Positions 21,625-36,317 of a stretch of 64,000 bases of DNA are shown here, one piece after another. The notes beneath the pieces were generated by a model, which saw nothing but the letters and a program-made list of their open reading frames with translations, had not been told where the DNA came from and searched no databases. The stretch lies in NCBI GenBank assembly GCA_049903315.1, contig JBNGBT010000001.1, positions 320,001-384,000 of the forward strand, written 5' to 3'. The position numbers and the translations under genes were made by a program. This stretch comes from Candidatus Cloacimonadota bacterium. GTDB taxonomy: Bacteria > Cloacimonadota > Cloacimonadia > JGIOTU-2. Positions within the stretch are counted from its first letter, which is position 1. Each line of letters begins with the position of its first letter.

Positions 21625-22836
21625 TTAGTTTCCTTGTGGTTCAATTGCTATCAGCACACCATACAGATCTTCGTGTACGAGTACTGGAATAAACATTATT
21701 CTTCCTTCACCTCCCTCAAATAAGGGAGCTTGAATGATATTCTCCTGCTTTGAGGTCATGACCTGTTCAAGCGCAGTGTCAAACGATTTATTCAGATTTT
21801 GAGAAGTGGAGTATCCGATTGAGGAATTGCATGGAGGCCAGCCGTTTATTATGGTTCCTGAAGTATCTGCTAGTTGGACGGAATATACATCAGGATTCTG
21901 CTCATAAATATGTTTCAGTAGTTTCTCGATCTCTTCGAATTGTTTATCGATGATAGGATCAATAAGCGTGTCCTGTATCGCATAACTGCGCAAAGTTGAA
22001 AGCAAGTACACATTTTCGGATCGCTTAATTGTGCTTTTAACGAGATTGCGGACGAGTGTGATATAAAATATTTCATTATATACCCGGATCGTATTCCATG
22101 CATAGATCTTCCTCAGAGAGCTCGATTCATCTTCAATGTTGGTTATAAAATAATCATTGGCATTTTCCGTCATTATATTATAAAGATTCTTCAATGCAAC
22201 ATCATATTCGTTCGAGTTCATTTTTGTGAGAAAATCCTTACCGATTCTCATCGGATCGGAATCATACACCACATCCTGTTGATCATTTATCACAATAAGC
22301 GAATAGGGGTAGGGTACGATATGTTCCTGTTCTATTTTTGAAAAGAGAATCGCAGTATTGACCAGAACGATCAATATATTTCGTTCATCTTGTACATCCG
22401 TGCTTGTCGGTAGAGTGATACAGATGTGGACATCAGTATTTTTATGAAGAGAGTGCCCGATAAAGGGTTCGGTAATTGCAGAGATATTTTTTCTGTTTTG
22501 ATTGGTAAGACAGTTCTCTGTAACATCATCAGTAGATACAGAAGCAGGATATTTTTTTATGAGCTCGAGGTCATTGTCATAAAGGAACAAAGCAGAAATT
22601 TCCGGATATTGTGCTGAGAGAAGCTGAAAATTTTGATTGGTTACTTCAGAAGATCTATGAACGGTCTCGAGCAGTGAGTTCATGAGAGATGTGATATATG
22701 ACGATATCTTTTCTGATACAGAAATGGTTACGGCTTCCTGTTTTTCTCTCTGTGCTTTTTCAAATTTCGAGGTACAACCCGAAAAGAGGATCAAGAAGCA
22801 GATCACAATAAAAAAATAACGAATAAATTTAACCAT
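21625..22836 (-). CDS. Lipoprotein with Cache/PAS-like sensor domains
   Basis: LFSGC lipobox; YPEISALFLYD, LIVINDQQDVVYDSDP..IG, VYSVQLADTSG, FIPVLVHEDLYGVL patterns; no second TM segment or output domain. Confidence 0.6.
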   Translation of the reverse strand: MVKFIRYFFIVICFLILFSGCTSKFEKAQREKQEAVTISVSEKISSYITSLMNSLLETVHRSSEVTNQNFQLLSAQYPEISALFLYDNDLELIKKYPASVSTDDVTENCLTNQNRKNISAITEPFIGHSLHKNTDVHICITLPTSTDVQDERNILIVLVNTAILFSKIEQEHIVPYPYSLIVINDQQDVVYDSDPMRIGKDFLTKMNSNEYDVALKNLYNIMTENANDYFITNIEDESSSLRKIYAWNTIRVYNEIFYITLVRNLVKSTIKRSENVYLLSTLRSYAIQDTLIDPIIDKQFEEIEKLLKHIYEQNPDVYSVQLADTSGTIINGWPPCNSSIGYSTSQNLNKSFDTALEQVMTSKQENIIQAPLFEGGEGRIMFIPVLVHEDLYGVLIAIEPQGN

Positions 22837-23704
22837 CTTCGTCACTCAAATTTTCATCATACGTGCTGTCAAACTTTCTGTTGCTGAATAGGCGCATGAT
22901 CTCGGTCGCTGCTTCTTCGATGGATTTTGACGTCACATCTACAATTTTCCACTTATGTTTGTTGTATATTTGCATACATTCTTTGAGTTCTTTTTTGATA
23001 AGTTCGAGATCAACATATTTTGAGAGCTGGATATGCTTATACCTGCTCGCCCGTACTTCTCTGATCGTTTTCAAACGGTTTGGAGATATTGTTAATCCGA
23101 CAACTTTATTATGATCTACCTGGAAGAGTTCATCAGGAAGATCAAGACCAAAGATCAAGGGAATATTTGCGATCTTGTAATCCCTGTATGCAAGATAGAT
23201 ACTGATCGGGGTTTTTGAAGTTCTGCTGGGACCGACAATTATAATATCTGCTTTGTACAGGTCAGTTAACTTCTTTCCGTCGTCGTGTTTTACTGCAAAA
23301 TCTATACACTCGATGCGTTGGTAATAGTTTTTATCCAGACTGCGGAACATGCCGGGAACAGCCATGGGGGATATCTCAAGATAATCTGTGAATCTGCTCA
23401 GAAGGGGACCCATCACATCGATCGCGGGAACAGCCCACTTTCTTCCTTCATCAAAAATAAGATCCCGTAGCTCGTTGGATACGAGTGTATACGCAATGAT
23501 GCCGTCAACTGCCATCACTTCCTGAACCACATCCCTGATTTCCTTTTCTGTTCTCACGTAGCGAACTCGATGAAGGTGTATGTCCGTTGTCCGGAATTGG
23601 CTGAGTGCTGCTTTGACCACCATTTCGCAGGTGGAGCCGGTCGCATCAGAGATAATAAAGATGTGCCGGATTTTTTTCGATTTACTGTTCTTGATTGAGA
23701 TCAT
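22829..23704 (-). CDS. Pyruvate,phosphate/water dikinase regulatory protein (PpsR/PDRP, DUF299)
   Basis: ISDATGST, YYQRIECIDFAVKHDDG, ADIIIVGPSRTSKTP.SIYLA, SIEEAA. Confidence 0.93.
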   Translation of the reverse strand: MISIKNSKSKKIRHIFIISDATGSTCEMVVKAALSQFRTTDIHLHRVRYVRTEKEIRDVVQEVMAVDGIIAYTLVSNELRDLIFDEGRKWAVPAIDVMGPLLSRFTDYLEISPMAVPGMFRSLDKNYYQRIECIDFAVKHDDGKKLTDLYKADIIIVGPSRTSKTPISIYLAYRDYKIANIPLIFGLDLPDELFQVDHNKVVGLTISPNRLKTIREVRASRYKHIQLSKYVDLELIKKELKECMQIYNKHKWKIVDVTSKSIEEAATEIMRLFSNRKFDSTYDENLSDEDG

Positions 23705-24723: not shown

Positions 24724-27114
24724 TTATCGTAACTTCACGACCTTCCCGAAATGTTCATCGTTATTATTTATTTTATAGAAATATACACCCGTGCCCAATT
24801 CGTTGCCATTAGCATCCTTTCCATCCCATGTTGCTTCGAGAAAGCGGGGAAGCGAAGAAGCGCCAGAAGAAATTTCTAAATCCGATCCGCCAGCTGGCGG
24901 ACTAATGTCTAATTCTCTGACAAGTTGTCCTTTTATATTATAAATTTTGATTCGTGCTAATTCGTGTAAATTCGTGGTTAATGAAAACGATAACGTTGTC
25001 GATGTAGAGAAGGGATTAGGGTAGGAGGATAATGAAATTTCATTATTGTATATATTTTCATCATCGATCGATGTATTTATATTGTAAGAATAGATTGAAG
25101 CACACTCTTTTTGCGTGCTGATAAAATATGTATTGTTGTCTTGTGCATAAAAATTTAAAAGAGGACCCCAACTATTAAAATTGATATATTCAAAACTTTC
25201 AAGGTAACCTGAAGGATTACCGGATACATCAAATAAACCTAAAGAAAACTCATATACTTGAAACAGAATATCATCATTAATAAAGCTTGAATACAGAAAT
25301 GAGTTTTCTGTCGAAAATTGTTCTGTTAACTGAAAAGGGGTTTCAAATATATAGAATTTATCAAAGTTATCTGTGATATATGCATTGGTGTGTAAATAAT
25401 TACCAACCTTATTCATCAAAATGTGATAATTGGGACCAAAATTAGAAATTGTTTGCGCGAGGTCGGGCTCATTGTCTTCAAATCCTCCATAGATATACAA
25501 ATTTTGATAAGGTGAAGCGCTATCAAGTACATAGAAATACCCATCGTTAAATAGACCCTTGCCATTTGAAATATATGTTAACGCGTAGTCAAATAGTATT
25601 TCCGGGGTTGCCGGATCGGACATATCGTATTTTACTATTTTTTGATATGGACCAAACCACCACCAATAAAAGCAATATAACATATCCGGCTCATCTTCAT
25701 TAATAATAAGAACAGGGATCCCGAATCCACCCTCTGCTTCAAAATCAGATTGCAAAATTGGCTCATGAGGATTTGAAATATTATATAAACAGACTTTTAT
25801 TTCATTATTTCTATTAACATACGCGCTATACATTCTGTTCCCAATAAACTTGCTCCCGTAGGTTCTGCAACTGTCCAATAGTATTTTTTTAAGTTTCGGC
25901 ATATCAGTATTGGACAAATCATAGACATAAATGCCATCATTTACCATAGGAATAAAAAGATAATCATCATAGATACTAATATATTTATATCCTAATTGGT
26001 GGTTTGGATGTGTTTGTTCGTTATTTATAAATACCATTGTGCCATCATAAAAAGAGTATTTGAAAATTCCGGAATCGGGTGTGCCCCAGTATAACAAATT
26101 ATTATAGTATTTGATATTTGAATTTGTAATATATGAGGTGAGTCCTGAAAAGTTTTGCTGTTCTTCGGAGAGAGGACAAAAGGAACTAAAACATGGATTT
26201 GTAATATCGGTAATATCCACTACTTCTATTCCATCTGGTGGTTGTGGAATGATAATATAATTATCAAATCTGGTAAAATCTGCCCATTTACCGTACGATG
26301 TATAGGTATAATAATCTGTAATAAAATACCAATTATGAATATCGGATATATCCCAAAGTGCTAATGCTTCATCGCCTAATATTCCAACCGTAGTGCTGTC
26401 GATTTGCTGAATATAATTATATGTTGTAATAACAGAAGGAGTGTTGGTAAGATTGATCGTTGCTTCTATGAAAATGTTATTAATATCTGTTATGTTATAT
26501 ATTTCATAAAGAAGACTTCCATTACGAGAGGTCATGAAAAGAGAATCATTAATAGGGTAGGTTTGACAGCATATAGGCAGAGAATTAATTTCCTCAAAAT
26601 TTTCATGGTCAAGAACCAATAATGTGCCTGAAAATGAATTCTCATTATATTCACGACACATTAAATTGTCATTATAGAAGCCCAATTGATAAATTACTGA
26701 GTCATCAAAAAACAGCGAATCAACAATTATGGGATTATCAGGAGTTGTGACATCGATCTTGTATAAATAGGATCCTAAGAACAGAGACCAGGTTTGACTT
26801 GTTGTCGATGCTATATACACGAAGTTATCCTTTTTAGTAATCATATCTGTCATTCCAATAAAACCAATCGTCGCAATTCTTTCCAGGTTGCCTGTTGCAT
26901 TATCTATGCTTTGTATTTCAAGCCCATATCTGTTAACAATATACATATATGAGGAATCAATAATGATTCTATCATCTCCGCAATAATTTCCTCCAATTGC
27001 AAAATCGTTGATCTTTTCATAATTGAATTCAATAGCATATAAAAATTCTGGTAATATAAGTATAAAGAGGGTAAAAATAATTAATAAATTTATTTGTTTA
27101 TAGTGTTTAATCAT
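24724..27114 (-). CDS. Secreted LVIVD-like repeat (beta-propeller) protein with FlgD-Ig/T9SS-type CTD
   Basis: Signal peptide; YKIDVTTPDNP, GIEVVDITDITNP, GIYVYDLSN, LYNISNPHEP repeats; YPNPF..IYNIKGQLVR..WDGKD..GVYFY..KVVKLR; AGGAG RBS. Confidence 0.82.
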   Translation of the reverse strand: MIKHYKQINLLIIFTLFILILPEFLYAIEFNYEKINDFAIGGNYCGDDRIIIDSSYMYIVNRYGLEIQSIDNATGNLERIATIGFIGMTDMITKKDNFVYIASTTSQTWSLFLGSYLYKIDVTTPDNPIIVDSLFFDDSVIYQLGFYNDNLMCREYNENSFSGTLLVLDHENFEEINSLPICCQTYPINDSLFMTSRNGSLLYEIYNITDINNIFIEATINLTNTPSVITTYNYIQQIDSTTVGILGDEALALWDISDIHNWYFITDYYTYTSYGKWADFTRFDNYIIIPQPPDGIEVVDITDITNPCFSSFCPLSEEQQNFSGLTSYITNSNIKYYNNLLYWGTPDSGIFKYSFYDGTMVFINNEQTHPNHQLGYKYISIYDDYLFIPMVNDGIYVYDLSNTDMPKLKKILLDSCRTYGSKFIGNRMYSAYVNRNNEIKVCLYNISNPHEPILQSDFEAEGGFGIPVLIINEDEPDMLYCFYWWWFGPYQKIVKYDMSDPATPEILFDYALTYISNGKGLFNDGYFYVLDSASPYQNLYIYGGFEDNEPDLAQTISNFGPNYHILMNKVGNYLHTNAYITDNFDKFYIFETPFQLTEQFSTENSFLYSSFINDDILFQVYEFSLGLFDVSGNPSGYLESFEYINFNSWGPLLNFYAQDNNTYFISTQKECASIYSYNINTSIDDENIYNNEISLSSYPNPFSTSTTLSFSLTTNLHELARIKIYNIKGQLVRELDISPPAGGSDLEISSGASSLPRFLEATWDGKDANGNELGTGVYFYKINNNDEHFGKVVKLR
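24886..24981. repeat. Intergenic-type repeats embedded in frame in the CTD coding region
   Basis: Perfect 16-bp palindrome TCCGCCAGCTGGCGGA (24886-24901) and TTCGTG x3 GGTTAA (24951-24981). Confidence 0.7.
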
Positions 27115-27175: not shown

Positions 27176-27556
27176 TTATTGGTTAGGAGGTTCGGGCTCT
27201 CCCGGATCGGGCTCTTGACCAGTGGTTGGCAAATAGAGATGAACCGTGGTAAAAGGTGAAATGCCGCCAACTTCAGAATCTGAGCGATCACCTTGTTCTG
27301 CCGTTAATGACCATATTGGATACTCTTGAGAACAGTAAATATCTGGAAATGATTCTGTATAATAGCCAGTACCTGTTTCCGGAGTTTTTGAATCATATAG
27401 ATATGGTTGTTGTTCAGGGGTGTCTTGCCTGTATAGGTAAAGCGTTGGACCGCTCTTTAATACACCATGAACATATACATCTACTGATTGAGCCAATAAA
27501 TTTCCACCAATGAATAGTGTCGCTAATATCGCGAGTATCGCAATTTTTTTAAACAT
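27176..27556 (-). CDS. Small secreted hypothetical protein with Pro-rich tail
   Basis: Signal peptide MFKKIAILAILATLFIGGNLLA; GAGG RBS; ends EPDPGEPEPPNQ. Confidence 0.8.
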   Translation of the reverse strand: MFKKIAILAILATLFIGGNLLAQSVDVYVHGVLKSGPTLYLYRQDTPEQQPYLYDSKTPETGTGYYTESFPDIYCSQEYPIWSLTAEQGDRSDSEVGGISPFTTVHLYLPTTGQEPDPGEPEPPNQ

Positions 27557-27959
27557 CGTTTTTACCTCTTAATTATTTTATTCCTTTATTCTACGTTTCC
27601 CCCTTTACTACAAAGGTAATTCGTAAAGGAGTATTCCCGGCAGTCTCAATAATCCATTTCATAATTTCCTTTCTACCATGTTCGAATTTCTTGTCAATAA
27701 GAAAACCTATCTGTTTTGGGAAGAACGATAGATAGGTCTGGTCAGGTGAATTTAGTTTTATGTATACATGTATTCAGGAAATGTAAACATTCCATTTTTA
27801 TTATTTTGCCCTTGCTTAATAATTTCATGCTACTATCCCCAAACCATGGTATTTCATGGCATACCTCAATTACTACGAACCAACTAAGTTGGATTCTGCT
27901 GCAGAACATCATTATCAAAATCTTCAACGTTTCATGGAGCCGGAGAAAACTCCCGCTAA

Positions 27960-28442
27960 TCATTCTTCTGGACGAAGAATGAATCGCGGGAGAGCCATGA
28001 TTGGGGTCTCTAAAATACCTCCGTACTCCTTGGTACTCATATTTTGCACCTCGTAACTTGCTGAAAATTGGACCTCTTTATCCAAGATTGAAGTCAGTGT
28101 TGTCTCAACTGCACGAGCATAAATAGGTTTTGTCAGATATCCTGCCGGATTCGTTTGCTTTGCTTCTTCCATGGTTTCTTCATCGTTGTAAGCAGACACG
28201 AATACTACAGGGACATCCTTACTGGTGCGAATCTGTCTCGCGGCTTCGATACCGTTGATCTGCCCGGCCAGGTTAATATCCATAAATATAAGATGCGGGT
28301 CAAAAGTTTTCGAAAGCTCGACAGCATGCTCGCCGCTTGCAGCAGTAACACATTCGTATGGTCCGAAACGTTGTATAAGATTTTTCAGATGCAGTGCGAT
28401 AATTGCTTCATCTTCAACGATCAATATTTTTTGTTTATTCAT
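27960..28442 (-). CDS. Single-domain response regulator (receiver) with short C-terminal tail
   Basis: KILIVEDE, IFMDINL (phospho-Asp), VFVSAY, YLTKP; start placed at ATG 28442. Confidence 0.88.
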   Translation of the reverse strand: MNKQKILIVEDEAIIALHLKNLIQRFGPYECVTAASGEHAVELSKTFDPHLIFMDINLAGQINGIEAARQIRTSKDVPVVFVSAYNDEETMEEAKQTNPAGYLTKPIYARAVETTLTSILDKEVQFSASYEVQNMSTKEYGGILETPIMALPRFILRPEE

Positions 28443-28464
28443 TATCTTATGATGTTTTTTATCC

Positions 28465-28575
28465 TTACGCTTTTCCCTCGACTGATTTCCTTTCATGTCC
28501 GAGGAAAACTTTTCCATCAGAGATTATTACTATATATTCTCCGCCATTGCCGTCATGTATTCTTTTAATAGTCAT
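28465..28575 (-). CDS. Micropeptide copy 1, 36 aa (MTIKRIHDGNGGEYIVIISDGKVFLGHERKSVEGKA)
   Basis: Below ORF-track cutoff; AAGGAGA RBS; paralogous to 29099 and 29399 copies with mainly synonymous differences. Confidence 0.8.
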   Translation of the reverse strand: MTIKRIHDGNGGEYIVIISDGKVFLGHERKSVEGKA

Positions 28576-28589
28576 GTTATTCTCCTTTA

Positions 28590-28874
28590 TTATGCTTTCA
28601 TTACGTGAACAGTACCATTCACTACGATCACAATGTACTTTTCACCATTTGGTCCAATTATAGTCGCATCGAATATAATTTCATCATTGCTATCAAATAC
28701 AAGCCCTATTACAACTGGATAGTCTGTGTTTTCATCTAAATATTGAGAGATGAATTCAGCATCATCCAGGTTGCATAAAGAACGCAATTCACTTGCTGTC
28801 ATTGCAAAAGCTACCGAATTAATTAATAACAAAAATACAAGTACACCTACTAACACTAATGTTTTCTTTTTCAT
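28590..28874 (-). CDS. Small secreted protein (94 aa) with C-terminal NGxxYIVIxxxGxV motif
   Basis: Signal peptide MKKKTLVLVGVLVFLLLINSVAFA; AGGTGG RBS before ATG 28874. Confidence 0.82.
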   Translation of the reverse strand: MKKKTLVLVGVLVFLLLINSVAFAMTASELRSLCNLDDAEFISQYLDENTDYPVVIGLVFDSNDEIIFDATIIGPNGEKYIVIVVNGTVHVMKA

Positions 28875-28898
28875 TTTACTTACCACCTTTCAGGTTAT

Positions 28899-29099
28899 TT
28901 ATTTATATATCATAAAAAGTGCCGATTTGTGACGACACCACTCAAAAAAGTTGAAAAAAAGTGAAAAAAATTCATTTGAGGTGACAGAATCCTTATGAAT
29001 TATCACATTTTTCTTCTCATGTCCGAGGAATACTTTTCCTTCAGAGATAATCACGATGTACTCTCCACCGTTTCCGTCATGAATTCTTTTAATAGTCAT
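28899..29099 (-). CDS. Micropeptide copy 2 (core 30 aa; reads through to 66 aa)
   Basis: AGGAGA RBS; MTIKRIHDGNGGEYIVIISEGKVFLGHEKK core. Confidence 0.75.
   Translation of the reverse strand: MTIKRIHDGNGGEYIVIISEGKVFLGHEKKNVIIHKDSVTSNEFFSLFFNFFEWCRHKSALFMIYK
28903..28985 (-). promoter_or_regulatory. Conserved promoter-like element, copy A (GTCACA-N16-GATATATA with three 10-bp-phased A-tracts upstream)
   Basis: Near-identical to 29202-29285; GTCACA at 28933-28928; lies about 30 nt upstream of the 28874 start. Confidence 0.6.
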
Positions 29100-29201
29100 T
29101 TTATTCTCCTATTATTTTTTTAATTTGCTAAGTTCCAAATTATTGCCAGCCATTTTCATGTAATTTTTTATAATCACAAGAATCATTTCTCTAATTTTTA
29201 C

Positions 29202-29285
29202 TTATATATCATGAAAAGTGCCGATTTGTGACGACACCACTCAAAAAAGTTGAAAAAAAATGAAAAAAGTTACATATGAGGTGAC
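29202..29285 (-). promoter_or_regulatory. Conserved promoter-like element, copy B
   Basis: GTCACA at 29232-29227, same spacing to GATATATA and same A-tracts as copy A. Confidence 0.6.
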
Positions 29286-29294
29286 TAAACCTTA

Positions 29295-29399
29295 TTAATT
29301 TTTATTATTTTTCTTCTCATGTCCGAGAAATACTTTTCCTTCAGAGACAATAACAGTGTATTCTCCGCCATTGCCGTCAGGAAATCTTTTTATGGTCAT
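29295..29399 (-). CDS. Micropeptide copy 3, 34 aa (MTIKRFPDGNGGEYTVIVSEGKVFLGHEKKNNKN)
   Basis: Below ORF-track cutoff; AAGGAGA RBS; tandem TAA TAA stops. Confidence 0.8.
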   Translation of the reverse strand: MTIKRFPDGNGGEYTVIVSEGKVFLGHEKKNNKN

Positions 29400-29654
29400 G
29401 GTGTTCTCCTTATCGTATTTTTGGGATTCATTTTGTATAATAGCCCTAAAATATTGACAGTTATTTTTAACTTTTCTTGGTACACATAAATTATAGATTT
29501 TATAATCTTATGATTTAAAAACATCGGTAACGCTCAAAAAAGTAAGAATGAGAATAGGCATTGAGGTCTTTTTTCTTGATCATCAAAAATTTCTTTCAAG
29601 TTAATTATTTCTTTAATGAATTGTGCAGATTGAGGTGAGATTGCTAAACATAAG

Positions 29655-30635
29655 ATGAAAAAAAAAGCTGATAATGATGCTGTTGTTCTGAAGAATTATC
29701 ATACTCTTGCCTACAATTATGCATTATACAAAGTTGGAAGTCTCGATGCAGCAGAGGATATAGCATCTCAGACGATTTATTCATATTTATTGAAAAGGGA
29801 AAAGATTGAAGAAAACAATGATGAGGGTTGGATTGTTAATACTAGTAAAAATTATTGTAATCAGTATTTTGATAGATTGAAGGCTGAAAAGAAATTGCAG
29901 AACGATATGGTTGGGAATATGGCAAGAGAACTGCAAACAAAAATATATGAGAGCCTTGATTTTGTTGATAATGAAAAAAACGAGCTCTTAGATGCCGTAA
30001 AAAATGCTAAAGAGACACTCACTTCCAAGGAACTTCAAACCTATATCTTATACCTTCAATGTGAAGCAAATGTACAGAGGATGGAAAAAATAATTGGTGA
30101 GTCCAATGAGGTTATCCGACAAAGGATCTCCAGGATCAATAGGAAAATAAAGGCAGAAACCTACAAAAAGCTTGGGGTAATAACCACCAAGAAAATATTA
30201 AGTCCTCAGATCAATGATATAATAAAAAAATTTCTTTTGCGATTTAAAAAGCATTTGGAAAATAATACACTGAATAAGATGTTTTATTATTTTTCGAAAA
30301 AAGATATTAGTAATTATAATCCCCAATTTAATATAAAAAAAGTATTGGATTATGAGGTAGTACTAGACGATGCAATATATACAATTCATGTAGTTTTTAC
30401 TAATACACAAGATGAGGATGAATCCTTCTATTTTTCGTTTACAGTGGAAAATAATTTTCTAAAAGTTCTTCAACCTCCCACACCTCACAGAGAACATTAT
30501 CAATTAAGCGGTGAAGATGCAGAAATACTTCTTACCTTATTAAAAAAATATCCCGAAGATAGTACAGGAGCACATCGTGTTCCCGATGAAGAACTTGTGC
30601 TTCTAAGAAGAATTCTTGGGGAAGAGGATGAATGA
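29655..30635 (+). CDS. ECF-type sigma-70 factor with about 150-aa C-terminal extension
   Basis: Region 2-like LAYNYALYKVGSLDAAEDIASQT...WIVNTSKNYC; region 4-like LTSKELQTYILY...MEKIIGESNEVIRQRISRINRKIK. Confidence 0.75.
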   Translation: MKKKADNDAVVLKNYHTLAYNYALYKVGSLDAAEDIASQTIYSYLLKREKIEENNDEGWIVNTSKNYCNQYFDRLKAEKKLQNDMVGNMARELQTKIYESLDFVDNEKNELLDAVKNAKETLTSKELQTYILYLQCEANVQRMEKIIGESNEVIRQRISRINRKIKAETYKKLGVITTKKILSPQINDIIKKFLLRFKKHLENNTLNKMFYYFSKKDISNYNPQFNIKKVLDYEVVLDDAIYTIHVVFTNTQDEDESFYFSFTVENNFLKVLQPPTPHREHYQLSGEDAEILLTLLKKYPEDSTGAHRVPDEELVLLRRILGEEDE

Positions 30636-34325: not shown

Positions 34326-35594
34326 TTAGCTGCTCATTAATTTCAGGAATTCCTGATTATTCTTGGTTCCTTTCATCTTGTTCTTAAGAAGTTCAATCGC
34401 ATCATATGGGCTTTGATTTTTCAATATTTTACGAAGAATAAATACACGATTTCTCACCTCTTCAGGAAGAAGTAATTCTTCACGGCGTGTGCCGGAAGTG
34501 ATAAGATCGATTGCCGGAAACATTCGCAAGTCGCTGATGGAACGGTCGAGAACAAGCTCCATATTACCGGTGCCCTTAAACTCTTCGAATATAACAGTAT
34601 CCATTTTACTTCCAGTATGAATTAGTGCGGTTGCCATTATAGTCAAACTTCCGCTTTCTTCTGTATTACGCGCAGCTCCGAAGAAGCGTTTCGGTTTGTG
34701 AAGTGCATTTGCATCGACACCACCGGAAAGCACTTTTCCGCTTGCAGGCATGAGTGTGTTATATGCCCGGGCAAGACGGGTAATACTATCAAGCAGTATG
34801 ACCACATCGCGTCCGTATTCAACCATTCTCTTTGCTTTTGCCATGACCATTTCTGCAAGGCGCACATGATGATGTGCGGTTTCATCAAAAGTGGAGCTCA
34901 CAACTTCTGAGTTTTCAGGTTTGACGATGCGCTTCATTTCAGTCACTTCTTCCGGTCGCTCATCAACAAGAAGGATAATCACATATACTTCCGGGTGGTT
35001 TGTGAGGATTGCATTTGCCAGCTTTTGAAGCAACACTGTTTTTCCGGTGCGGGGTGCAGCAACAATAAGTCCTCTTTGTCCTTTTCCGATCGGTGTAAAG
35101 AGGTCGATTATCCGGGTAGAAAGTTCGTCCTGGTCAGTTTCCAGATTGAGTTTTTCTTCGGGATAGAGCGGTGTCAGATGATCAAAATTCGGGGTTTCAT
35201 ACGCGCGTAAAGCCGGTTCGTTATTGATCGCATCAATTCTAATGAGAGCGAAGTATTTTTCATCTTCTTTTGGCGAACGTACAGGTCCGGAAATGATATT
35301 TCCCTGTTTGATATGAAATTTTTTCACCTGGGCTTTGGATACATAGATGTCGCTGGGTCCGCTTATATAATTTGCTTTTGGTGAACGCAGAAAGCCATAT
35401 CCTTCCGGAGTAAGATCTATCACGCCTGTGGTGAAGACCAATCCTTCATTTGCTGCCTGAGCATCGAGAATCGCGAACATTAAAGCTTCTTTATTCATAG
35501 TCTTAAAGTTCTTTATTTCATAACCTTTTGCGATCTTGTGAAGTTCAGGTAAGGTCATTTTTTGCATTTCTTTTAGATCAATTAAATCTTCCAT
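34326..35594 (-). CDS. rho: Transcription termination factor Rho
   Basis: [61 protein letters not shown]. Confidence 0.98.
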
Positions 35595-35609
35595 AATACT
35601 CCTAAATAT

Positions 35610-36317
35610 TTATGATTTTTCATTTTTATTTTTTCTATGTTTTACTTTAAAATTTTCTTCAGCTGCTGATTTTCTAACGTATAAGGGTTCTACCTTCGAA
35701 ATATTATCAACTTCATATATGTCACAACCCTTATTGTTTTCAATGATGTCGATCAGAGATGTTGCCTTCGGAAAACAGTCAATATCTCTTGCAAAGTTCA
35801 GGATGGCATCAGTATCAAACAATGCTTGTTTTATTTTTGATTTGACGGGTCCAATAATCAGAGTTTCAGTATCTACAATTTTCATAATTTGTTCAAGCTT
35901 CGCAAAAGCAGGTGCGTGAATTTCAGCAAGATCCGATGAATATACAGCAAAGTAATATTCTTTCCTTCCTGCATCCATGAGTGCACAGATATTTTCTGAA
36001 ACTGCTGATGTGTTGTTGGCAAGAGATCTCAGTGTCGAAGTTACGTAAAGCGGTATTTTCAAACCGAAACAGAGTCCTTTGGCAGTAGAGAGCCCGATGC
36101 GCAGTCCTGTAAAAGAACCCGGTCCGATCGAAAGCGCTATTGCTGAGATGTTTTCAAGTTTCATATCTGTTTGAGCAAGCAGGTTTTCAACTGTGGGCAA
36201 GAGACGTTCCGAATGAGTCCTTTTTGCTTTGGTAGTCACATCTGCAATGATCTGACCATTACTGGAGAGAGCAATACTTTCGTAAGCTGTTGAGGTCTCA
36301 AGAGCGAGAATATTCAT
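35610..36317 (-). CDS. tsaB: t6A biosynthesis protein TsaB
   Basis: MNILALETS, HSERLLP, GPGSFTGLRIG, DAGRKE, EPLYVR; start placed at ATG 36317. Confidence 0.93.
   Translation of the reverse strand: MNILALETSTAYESIALSSNGQIIADVTTKAKRTHSERLLPTVENLLAQTDMKLENISAIALSIGPGSFTGLRIGLSTAKGLCFGLKIPLYVTSTLRSLANNTSAVSENICALMDAGRKEYYFAVYSSDLAEIHAPAFAKLEQIMKIVDTETLIIGPVKSKIKQALFDTDAILNFARDIDCFPKATSLIDIIENNKGCDIYEVDNISKVEPLYVRKSAAEENFKVKHRKNKNEKS

Follow-up and report, generated by a model that had tools for sequence, protein, structure and literature searches.

Several groups of extracytoplasmic function (ECF) sigma factors carry a SnoaL-like C-terminal extension, and their regulatory functions are still to be elucidated according to a 2022 review (PMC8999054). 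In ECF41 (Wecke et al. 2012, PMC3426412; SigJ and SigI of M. tuberculosis) the domains sigma2 and sigma4 are followed by a SnoaL/NTF2-like extension, there is no classical anti-sigma factor and the first target is the adjacent gene, which encodes a carboxymuconolactone decarboxylase, oxidoreductase or epimerase (COE) and is read from a TGTCACA-n16-CGTC promoter, while the linker bears the motif WLPEP. In ECF56 the SnoaL-type sigma factor SigG1 is bound by a small neighbouring protein, the soluble 17-kDa anti-sigma factor RsfG (PMC7730460), and a SnoaL-like extension is also found in ECF205, ECF294 and ECF295 (PMC7826278, main text). In the Rgg/SHP systems with RaS-RiPP operons (RiPP, ribosomally synthesised and post-translationally modified peptide) the regulator lies beside a small exported-peptide gene, divergent or in tandem, with several paralogous pairs per genome and with secreted proteases and radical SAM operons among the outputs (PMC8092268). 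Here we describe a sigma factor/peptide module in a stretch of 64,000 nt (hereafter, the window) of Candidatus Cloacimonadota bacterium (GCA_049903315.1, contig JBNGBT010000001.1, 320,001-384,000). The module, which a first-pass annotation of the window had proposed as a linked unit, is real and conserved across loci of the phylum; as established, it is a variant of the extension-bearing ECF sigma factors, and no description of it was found in the literature that we searched (subscription journals were mostly uncovered). The string 'Cloacimon' is absent from the main text of PMC7826278, whose supplements may list such sigma factors.

The gene for an ECF-type sigma factor of 326 aa (29655-30635, + strand), called from its open reading frame (ORF) and from domain and fold searches, stands divergent from an array on the minus strand. 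Starting from the sigma gene, the array consists of peptide 3, an upstream signal-less hairpin copy of 34 aa (29295-29399); box B, a predicted promoter (29197-29271; repeat, motif scan 58.8 bits); peptide 2, a 66-aa ORF that runs through box A (28899-29099); box A, a predicted promoter directly before the secreted gene (28898-28972; repeat, motif scan 59.5 bits); a secreted protein of 94 aa (28590-28874); peptide 1, of 36 aa, in a conserved position between the secreted gene and the receiver (28465-28575); and a stand-alone receiver of 160 aa (27960-28442). ORF and repeat analysis confirmed that every part of the proposed array is present and in the order proposed, and the motif said to be shared by four products was recovered in all of them (NGGEYIVIISDGKV, NGGEYIVIISEGKV, NGGEYTVIVSEGKV and NGEKYIVIVVNGTV). 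Each peptide start in the window is preceded by a GGAG ribosome site, which together with the ORF supports the calls of peptides 2 and 3. No anti-sigma-like gene was seen beside the sigma gene in the ORF lists, in line with what had been claimed (no search was aimed at anti-sigma families), and the other neighbour of the sigma gene is what we take, from its sequence, to be a MutS-like gene. The claimed lack of a histidine kinase holds for the contig, on which none with a HisKA domain was found, but not for the genome, where other contigs encode 18 HisKA domains. In what follows, G plus a number denotes a genome (G000 is the source genome), L plus a number a fetched locus, and f1 and f15 are families.

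By its domains and its predicted fold, the window's sigma factor is a diverged ECF protein with an NTF2/SnoaL-like C-terminal domain that resembles ECF41 and ECF56 but falls outside ECF41 and probably outside ECF56 too. It comprises sigma2 (residues ~4-88), a helical linker, sigma4 (~115-172), the NTF2/SnoaL-like domain (~180-280) and a short helical tail; sigma2 and sigma4 are thus present and sigma3 is missing, as in ECF (group 4) sigma factors. Its divergence is such that Pfam Sigma70_r2 matches with an E-value of 0.03 and that no match to an NCBIfam ECF model attains the cut-off of that model (TIGR02937, E 1e-6; at E <= 0.01 this model matches 39 of 44 family members, the window's protein being below the cut-off). 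A PDB sequence search with the sigma profile returned a BldN-type sigma2 at E 0.016 as the sole match. The top Foldseek and VIA matches over residues 1-176 are ECF sigma factors (Atlas score 0.92), and residues 180-280 align with NTF2-like chains with VIA Z scores of 9.4-9.7 and a root-mean-square deviation (rmsd) of 2.5-2.9 A over 93-99 residues; Pfam SnoaL gave no match to this domain, and the extension is assigned by fold likeness alone. The packing of the domains in the AF2 model (predicted local distance difference test, pLDDT, 73) is unsure because its predicted TM-score (pTM) is 0.36.

As family models of ECF41 we used TIGR02957, which we presume to represent that group, and the SigJ model NF007214. 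The window's sigma factor scores 27.7 bits on TIGR02957 against a cut-off of 323, over its N-terminal half only, and the WLPEP motif is absent from the linkers of 88 of 88 Cloacimonadota sigma factors. None of the ECF56 models reached its cut-off with the window's protein; the SigG1-RsfG structure (PDB 7qh5) aligns to both halves of it with a VIA Z score of 8.2 but with an rmsd of 24 A over 171 residues. Searched with the sigma profile at E <= 1e-5, 98 of the 232 Cloacimonadota genomes contain relatives, of which the weakest align over the N-terminal part only; the source genome has one full-length family member. Named homologs, a minority of all homologs, are all from Cloacimonadota, the genomes having been surveyed within this phylum. 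At two loci, two tandem sigma paralogs share one secreted gene (L057, 4054-6029; L058, 1367-3370).

The 94-aa protein has a signal-peptide-like N-terminus, an acidic mature part and a C-terminal beta-meander that ends in a hairpin, and it belongs to a phylum-wide family. In fact, the loci around the sigma matches nearly always hold a protein of 60-95 aa with a signal-peptide-like start and a C-terminal YxIVxxDGxxYI hairpin. Among 46 N-termini of the family, picked for a hydrophobic start, 46 are basic, 45 have a hydrophobic core and one has a lipobox. At E <= 1e-3 the profile of the secreted protein matches at most 147 of 232 genomes, since matches near 1e-4 may reflect nothing but signal peptides; it also matches 171 clusters at 50% identity among 1.84 billion proteins. 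Pfam gave no match for the peptides, the 94-aa protein or a 126-aa protein encoded further along the minus strand, the ESM Atlas no usable match for the mature secreted protein, and the best match of its fold search (Z 3.3) is uninformative.

We measured the linkage of the two genes on 40 held-out loci, taken from 150 listed matches of the secreted protein and present in neither training set. In 31 of them a sigma gene lies less than 400 bp from the secreted gene, always on its 5' side (13 divergent, 18 tandem), so that the adjacent gene for a small exported peptide that is typical of RRNPP systems is found there. The nine remaining loci comprise three that end within 300 bp of a contig edge, one (L101) that has a second secreted copy, which does lie beside a sigma gene, and five true orphans. 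Starting from the sigma factor, a secreted gene lies within 1.5 kb in 58 of 71 matches (a set overlapping the training set), and in two of the others it sits 3-6 kb off, behind inserted cargo genes. On metagenome contigs the partner is present in 16 of the 18 that have at least 450 bp upstream (28 were fetched, several of which repeat genomes already counted). The sigma factors of the linked loci are only 13-25% identical to that of the window. Judged by gene order and homology, the sigma factor and the secreted hairpin protein are a conserved core cassette, phylum-wide in Cloacimonadota. At three loci (L095, L096 and L102, ~1850-2030) a fragment that we take to be phage-lysozyme-like adjoins the cassette, a hint at mobile DNA.

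Over 75 nt, boxes A and B share 95% of their letters, and both contain the pattern GTCACA-n15/16-(T/G)GATAT, which is that of an ECF-like promoter. Precisely, box B reads GAGTGG..GTCACA (29232-29227), 15 nt, TGATAT, and box A has GTCACA at 28933-28928 and TGATAT at 28912-28907. The (C/T)GTCACA of the boxes is nearly identical to the ECF41 -35 element TGTCACA, whereas their -10 element, as read from the sequence alone, is (T/G)GATAT and not CGTC/TGTT (PMC3426412). A motif search on 81 upstream regions returned GAGTGG..GTCACA..T-tract..GATA with a log-likelihood of 566, against 93-100 in letter shuffles, and throughout the clade this motif stands before the secreted gene. In other sigma clades the version differs (CGTCCC..GTCT/GTAT or GGTAACA..ACTAAT); the promoter motif thus changes with the sigma clade, as expected of cognate promoters. 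Among the 232 genomes, 7 contain the exact pattern, each together with a sigma factor of the close clade; it is missing from the three genomes of the genus that have no sigma match (89-96% complete). With a box matrix built from 20 sites of other genomes we found four sites in the source genome and none in the reversed control: box A, box B, C33:266711(+) and C4:36113(-), all of which face genes for secreted proteins and none the sigma gene. A scan with the sigma-70 consensus gave 16 sites against 16.8 expected. The terminator scan flagged box A, and we considered the box as an intrinsic terminator; we doubt this, since it is the middle that varies in the clade consensus and both end motifs and the T-tract are retained. 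In G214 (L002/L023, 320-400) the box core upstream of the secreted gene is deleted, the sigma and secreted genes being intact.

The regulon would not end with the array. All 11 non-module boxes fetched from other genomes precede signal-peptide-like ORFs (judged by eye), and one in G221 (L142) heads homologs of two window genes on the minus strand, the 126-aa secreted protein (27176-27556), whose homolog lies directly under that box, and a 796-aa secreted protein with a FlgD_ig/Por_Secre_tail C-terminus (24724-27114); both are probable downstream targets. Distant boxes precede operons of large secreted proteins, and the regulon would therefore extend beyond the array, a further difference from ECF41. 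The claim that the sigma factor transcribes the array from the duplicated boxes is accordingly to be widened: the boxes behave as promoters of the sigma family, but they also head distant operons. Genes downstream of the cassettes include C25 peptidases, proteins with FlgD or type IX secretion system (T9SS) tails, and radical SAM enzymes, the latter usually beside short ORFs; 27 near-cassette proteins, from 35 picked by hand and so not at random, comprise 13 with FlgD/T9SS-type tails, 5 radical SAM enzymes, 2 C25 peptidases and 2 hybrid kinases, categories that overlap little.

Other observations concern these outputs. Short candidate RiPP precursors follow the sigma/secreted pair at L081, L082, L083, L085, L110, L113, L114, L063, L067 and L069; several of them adjoin genes for radical SAM enzymes, others are followed by C25 peptidases, and the clusters are apparently unexplored. 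The source genome has at least well over 100 tblastn matches to the FlgD/T9SS-type tail, few of those genes being under a box, and the small secreted gene under the C4 box (C4 ~35300-35660; L006, 7327-7662) appears frameshifted near its start.

The peptides and the receiver are additions of one clade to the core. In a quick sigma tree of 105 rows, a 36-row clade (Shimodaira-Hasegawa approximate likelihood ratio test, 100) spans f1 and f15, and its loci usually run from the box through the secreted gene and the peptide to the receiver. The peptide is present in 23 of 29 loci of the close sigma clade, which are largely the training set of its profile, and in 0 of 65 loci of other clades (L062 was left out of this count); it is also found outside the training set in G135, G133 and G184, with diverged copies in L181 and L182. 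The array as one unit, as the first-pass annotation had it, is thus to be divided into the phylum-wide pair of sigma factor and secreted hairpin protein, which stands, and the peptide and receiver, which are an add-on. The signal-less peptides of the clade are 24-36 aa long, those of f15 23-27 aa. Had their homologs been unlinked to this sigma family in other genomes, the proposal would have suffered; we found them linked to it in two families of the phylum.

We consider the peptides as genes because the three window copies differ mostly at synonymous sites (9-11 of ~19, against 2-6.5 of ~68 non-synonymous) and because the ratio of non-synonymous to synonymous change (dN/dS) is 0.067, the pooled proportions of changed sites being 0.66 (synonymous, pS) and 0.10 (non-synonymous, pN) over 12 copies from the genus in 66 non-independent pairs. 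A reading of the repeats as non-coding RNA was rejected because the changes are synonymous; Rfam gave one sub-threshold chance match. A profile of the peptide only retrieves C-termini of secreted proteins in other families, and therefore the homology of peptide and secreted hairpin is confirmed. In addition, the peptides are closer to the secreted hairpin of their own locus than to those of other genera in 16 of 21 cases (group permutation p 0.0006; 8 related groups, kin non-independent, with one or two windows anchored off by one).

Not all copies had the same fate. The one between the secreted gene and the receiver is conserved, whereas a locus may have none, one or two of the upstream copies (two in G217, one each in G221 and G145), which are sometimes decayed. 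Peptide 3 has a near-identical copy on the same side in G221. Peptide 2 keeps its start and the conserved first 30 residues, but its stop, expected after ~34 codons, is missing and the 66-aa ORF reads through box A; other decayed copies are a 63-aa receiver-tail fusion in G221 and one in G220 that is truncated. We read copies 2 and 3 as local duplicates whose number varies, one of the two being partly decayed. Three peptide matches in G218 contain stops and were dropped. In G221 (L001/L021/L157) we also observed a second cassette 3' of the sigma gene, in which the 63-aa peptide is fused to a C-terminal stretch of the receiver, a deletion product. The window's receiver matches PF00072 with E 8e-23 (81 bits against a cut-off of 30) and has the acidic pocket (E10-D11), the phospho-Asp (D55), the Ser/Thr (S83) and the Lys (K105) in place. 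Receivers, found in 23 of 29 loci of the close clade and mostly together with the peptide, also occur in other sigma clades (L064, second cassette of L062).

To the proposed binding of peptide and sigma factor we can add one predicted complex. Full-length sigma factor and peptide 1, each with its alignment, scored 0.48 in ESMFold2 (runs 0.48, 0.53 and 0.48; best control 0.01), the runs sharing at least 80% of contacts with a partner pLDDT of at least 68. In the calibration of the tool, 116 of 157 solved pairs and 2 of 215 mismatched ones attain the mark for a complex; the pass is weak because 0.48 falls in the range up to 0.60, in which 18 solved pairs and both mismatches reach the mark. In a mirror-tree analysis of 88 pairs, the partial correlation with the sigma C-terminal domain was 0.18 for the hairpin and 0.16 for the signal peptide.

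We tentatively put first a self-contained sigma/peptide circuit that would control secreted proteins, with the hairpin as a pheromone-like signal to the sigma factor in a positive loop. In its first step, which we hold to be very probable, the sigma factor would read the GTCACA-n15/16-(T/G)GATAT boxes and transcribe the gene of the secreted hairpin protein and distant operons of large exported proteins. In the second, which we hold to be slightly more likely than not, the C-terminal hairpin would be a ligand of the sigma factor. Its likeliest target there would be the NTF2/SnoaL-like domain, the kind of domain that acts in ECF41, as described, as an inhibitory built-in regulator (PMC8999054). 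In the third, the exported protein would serve as the precursor of a signal: its tip would re-enter the cytoplasm, in the producing cell or in its neighbours, and there lift the inhibition. The outcome would be positive feedback as in Rgg/SHP or in PlcR/PapR, which is peptide signalling of the RRNPP type. In this clade the signal-less copies would present the surface of the tip without leaving the cell and act as agonists or competitors; the receiver, transcribed together with them, may link the output to kinases encoded elsewhere. We ranked the pheromone-like loop first among the ligand readings because its layouts, paralogous pairs and outputs parallel those of Rgg/SHP (PMC8092268). The Cloacimonadota regulator differs from RRNPP proteins in being sigma2-sigma4-NTF2 and not HTH-TPR, and its putative ligand, which would have to be imported and bound, in having a conserved part that is a beta-meander of 30-35 aa.

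A number of points weigh against this circuit. The pass of the predicted complex is weak and gives no interface, so that the site on the C-terminal domain is putative. Promoter and hairpin could track the sigma tree through nothing more than co-inheritance. The exact box pattern is missing from most of f15 and from two genomes of the genus that do have the sigma factor, and the short promoter core alone is unspecific (11 matches against 12 in the control). Five secreted genes of the held-out set with ample upstream DNA have no sigma gene, and 13 of 71 sigma matches have no nearby secreted gene, ~8 of them away from contig edges. No protease or importer was seen conserved next to the cassette in the ORF lists, and a returning peptide would have to cross two membranes. 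The conserved part, ~30-35 aa and predicted to fold, is longer than typical linear pheromones. Finally, the neighbour gene of ECF41 is a mere target with no signalling role (PMC3426412).

We consider nearly as likely that the secreted protein is output only: the sigma factor would regulate itself via its fused domain as ECF41 does, with the secreted hairpin protein as its main target, which might for example assist the large exported proteins in the periplasm or at the surface, and the peptides would act elsewhere. ECF41, with the adjacent gene as the sole target (PMC3426412), is a precedent for this. The secreted gene lies directly under the box and heads further operons without a sigma gene (L101, L094, L099, L104, L108 and L116), some sigma factors have no secreted gene, and the mirror-tree gave no clear tie of hairpin and C-terminal domain. 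Output only leaves unexplained, however, the purifying selection on the signal-less copies, the tight adjacency across sigma factors so diverged from that of the window, and the pass, weak as it is, of the complex.

An export-coupled anti-sigma factor, in the manner of FlgM, appears unlikely. The cytoplasmic precursor would inhibit the sigma factor and export would remove it, so that the regulon could be switched on only by a cell whose secretion is functional; the signal-less peptides would set a constant threshold. As in FlgM/sigma28, the activity of the sigma factor could be coupled to secretion through a small partner that is exported; here, however, export would be by signal peptide and not type III, the partner is a beta-hairpin and the sigma factor an ECF. 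The gene sits where anti-sigma genes sit, directly after the sigma gene in 18 of the 31 held-out pairs and under the sigma factor's own promoter, the targets are export cargo, re-import is unneeded and the weak complex pass fits equally. Export-bound precursors are normally folded in the cytoplasm only briefly, and a constantly made cytoplasmic inhibitor would blunt the sensor. The ECF56 sigma factor with its soluble RsfG offers a precedent (PMC7730460), but the Cloacimonadota partner has a signal peptide and comes with signal-less peptide copies.

It is improbable that the peptides are unrelated to the sigma factor, being either remnants of a duplication of the secreted gene's tip or molecules that target the receiver: the variable and decaying upstream copies (window, G221, G220), the joint occurrence of peptide and receiver (23 and 23 of 29) and a box-peptide-receiver unit without secreted gene (L159) would fit, but the dN/dS, the position and ribosome site conserved in two families, and the receiver without peptide in G163 do not.

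Further features of the window lie beyond the array. An inverted repeat at the end of the receiver gene (27950-27992, strand unassigned; 19-nt arms, 89% complementary) is a possible terminator, not called by the terminator scan. A leader element with a covarying hairpin (27683-27774, - strand), called from sequence conservation and covariation, lies before secreted-protein operons. Precisely, it stands ~100-125 nt before secreted-protein genes in 8 of 8 source-genome matches, and also in L138-L140, L142, L144-L147 and L135, with or without a box. Over 13 related sequences, 96.6% of the cells of its 9-bp hairpin are paired and three pairs have two-sided changes, a covariation score reached by 0 of 500 shuffles. 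It is possibly an antitermination or translation-control element. Four box-less leaders (L152-L155; G000:C44:~271400, C69:~55650, C3:~69560 and C66:~173900) share a TTGACA/TTGACC-like site and carry a short ATG-started frame and a poly-C run of differing length before the hairpin; phase variation or leader-peptide control of these operons is possible. A Cache-like protein of 406 aa without kinase domain (dCache_1, E 0.0015; 21625-23704, - strand) adjoins a kinase/pyrophosphorylase gene.

Taking the ligand readings together, it is somewhat short of an even chance that Cloacimonadota have a phylum-wide form of signalling in which the sigma factor itself is the receptor for a genome-encoded beta-hairpin peptide, which comes in two forms, an exported precursor and mini-copies that stay in the cytoplasm, and in which this sigma factor controls secreted enzymes and the operons of modified peptides. 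If so, this would be quorum sensing through a sigma factor, or an anti-sigma factor that monitors export, and a SnoaL/NTF2 extension of a sigma factor would have its first ligand. A candidate for such a ligand is encoded beside the sigma factor, natural sets of sigma factor, promoter and peptide are many, the system is small enough for rebuilding in E. coli, and the clade-specific promoters could serve as orthogonal switches. Were the hairpin shown to be the ligand of the sigma factor, the module would count as categorically new; should binding hold, a peptide-responsive sigma factor would be added to bacterial signalling, and a mostly uncultured phylum would have a regulator for its secreted proteins.

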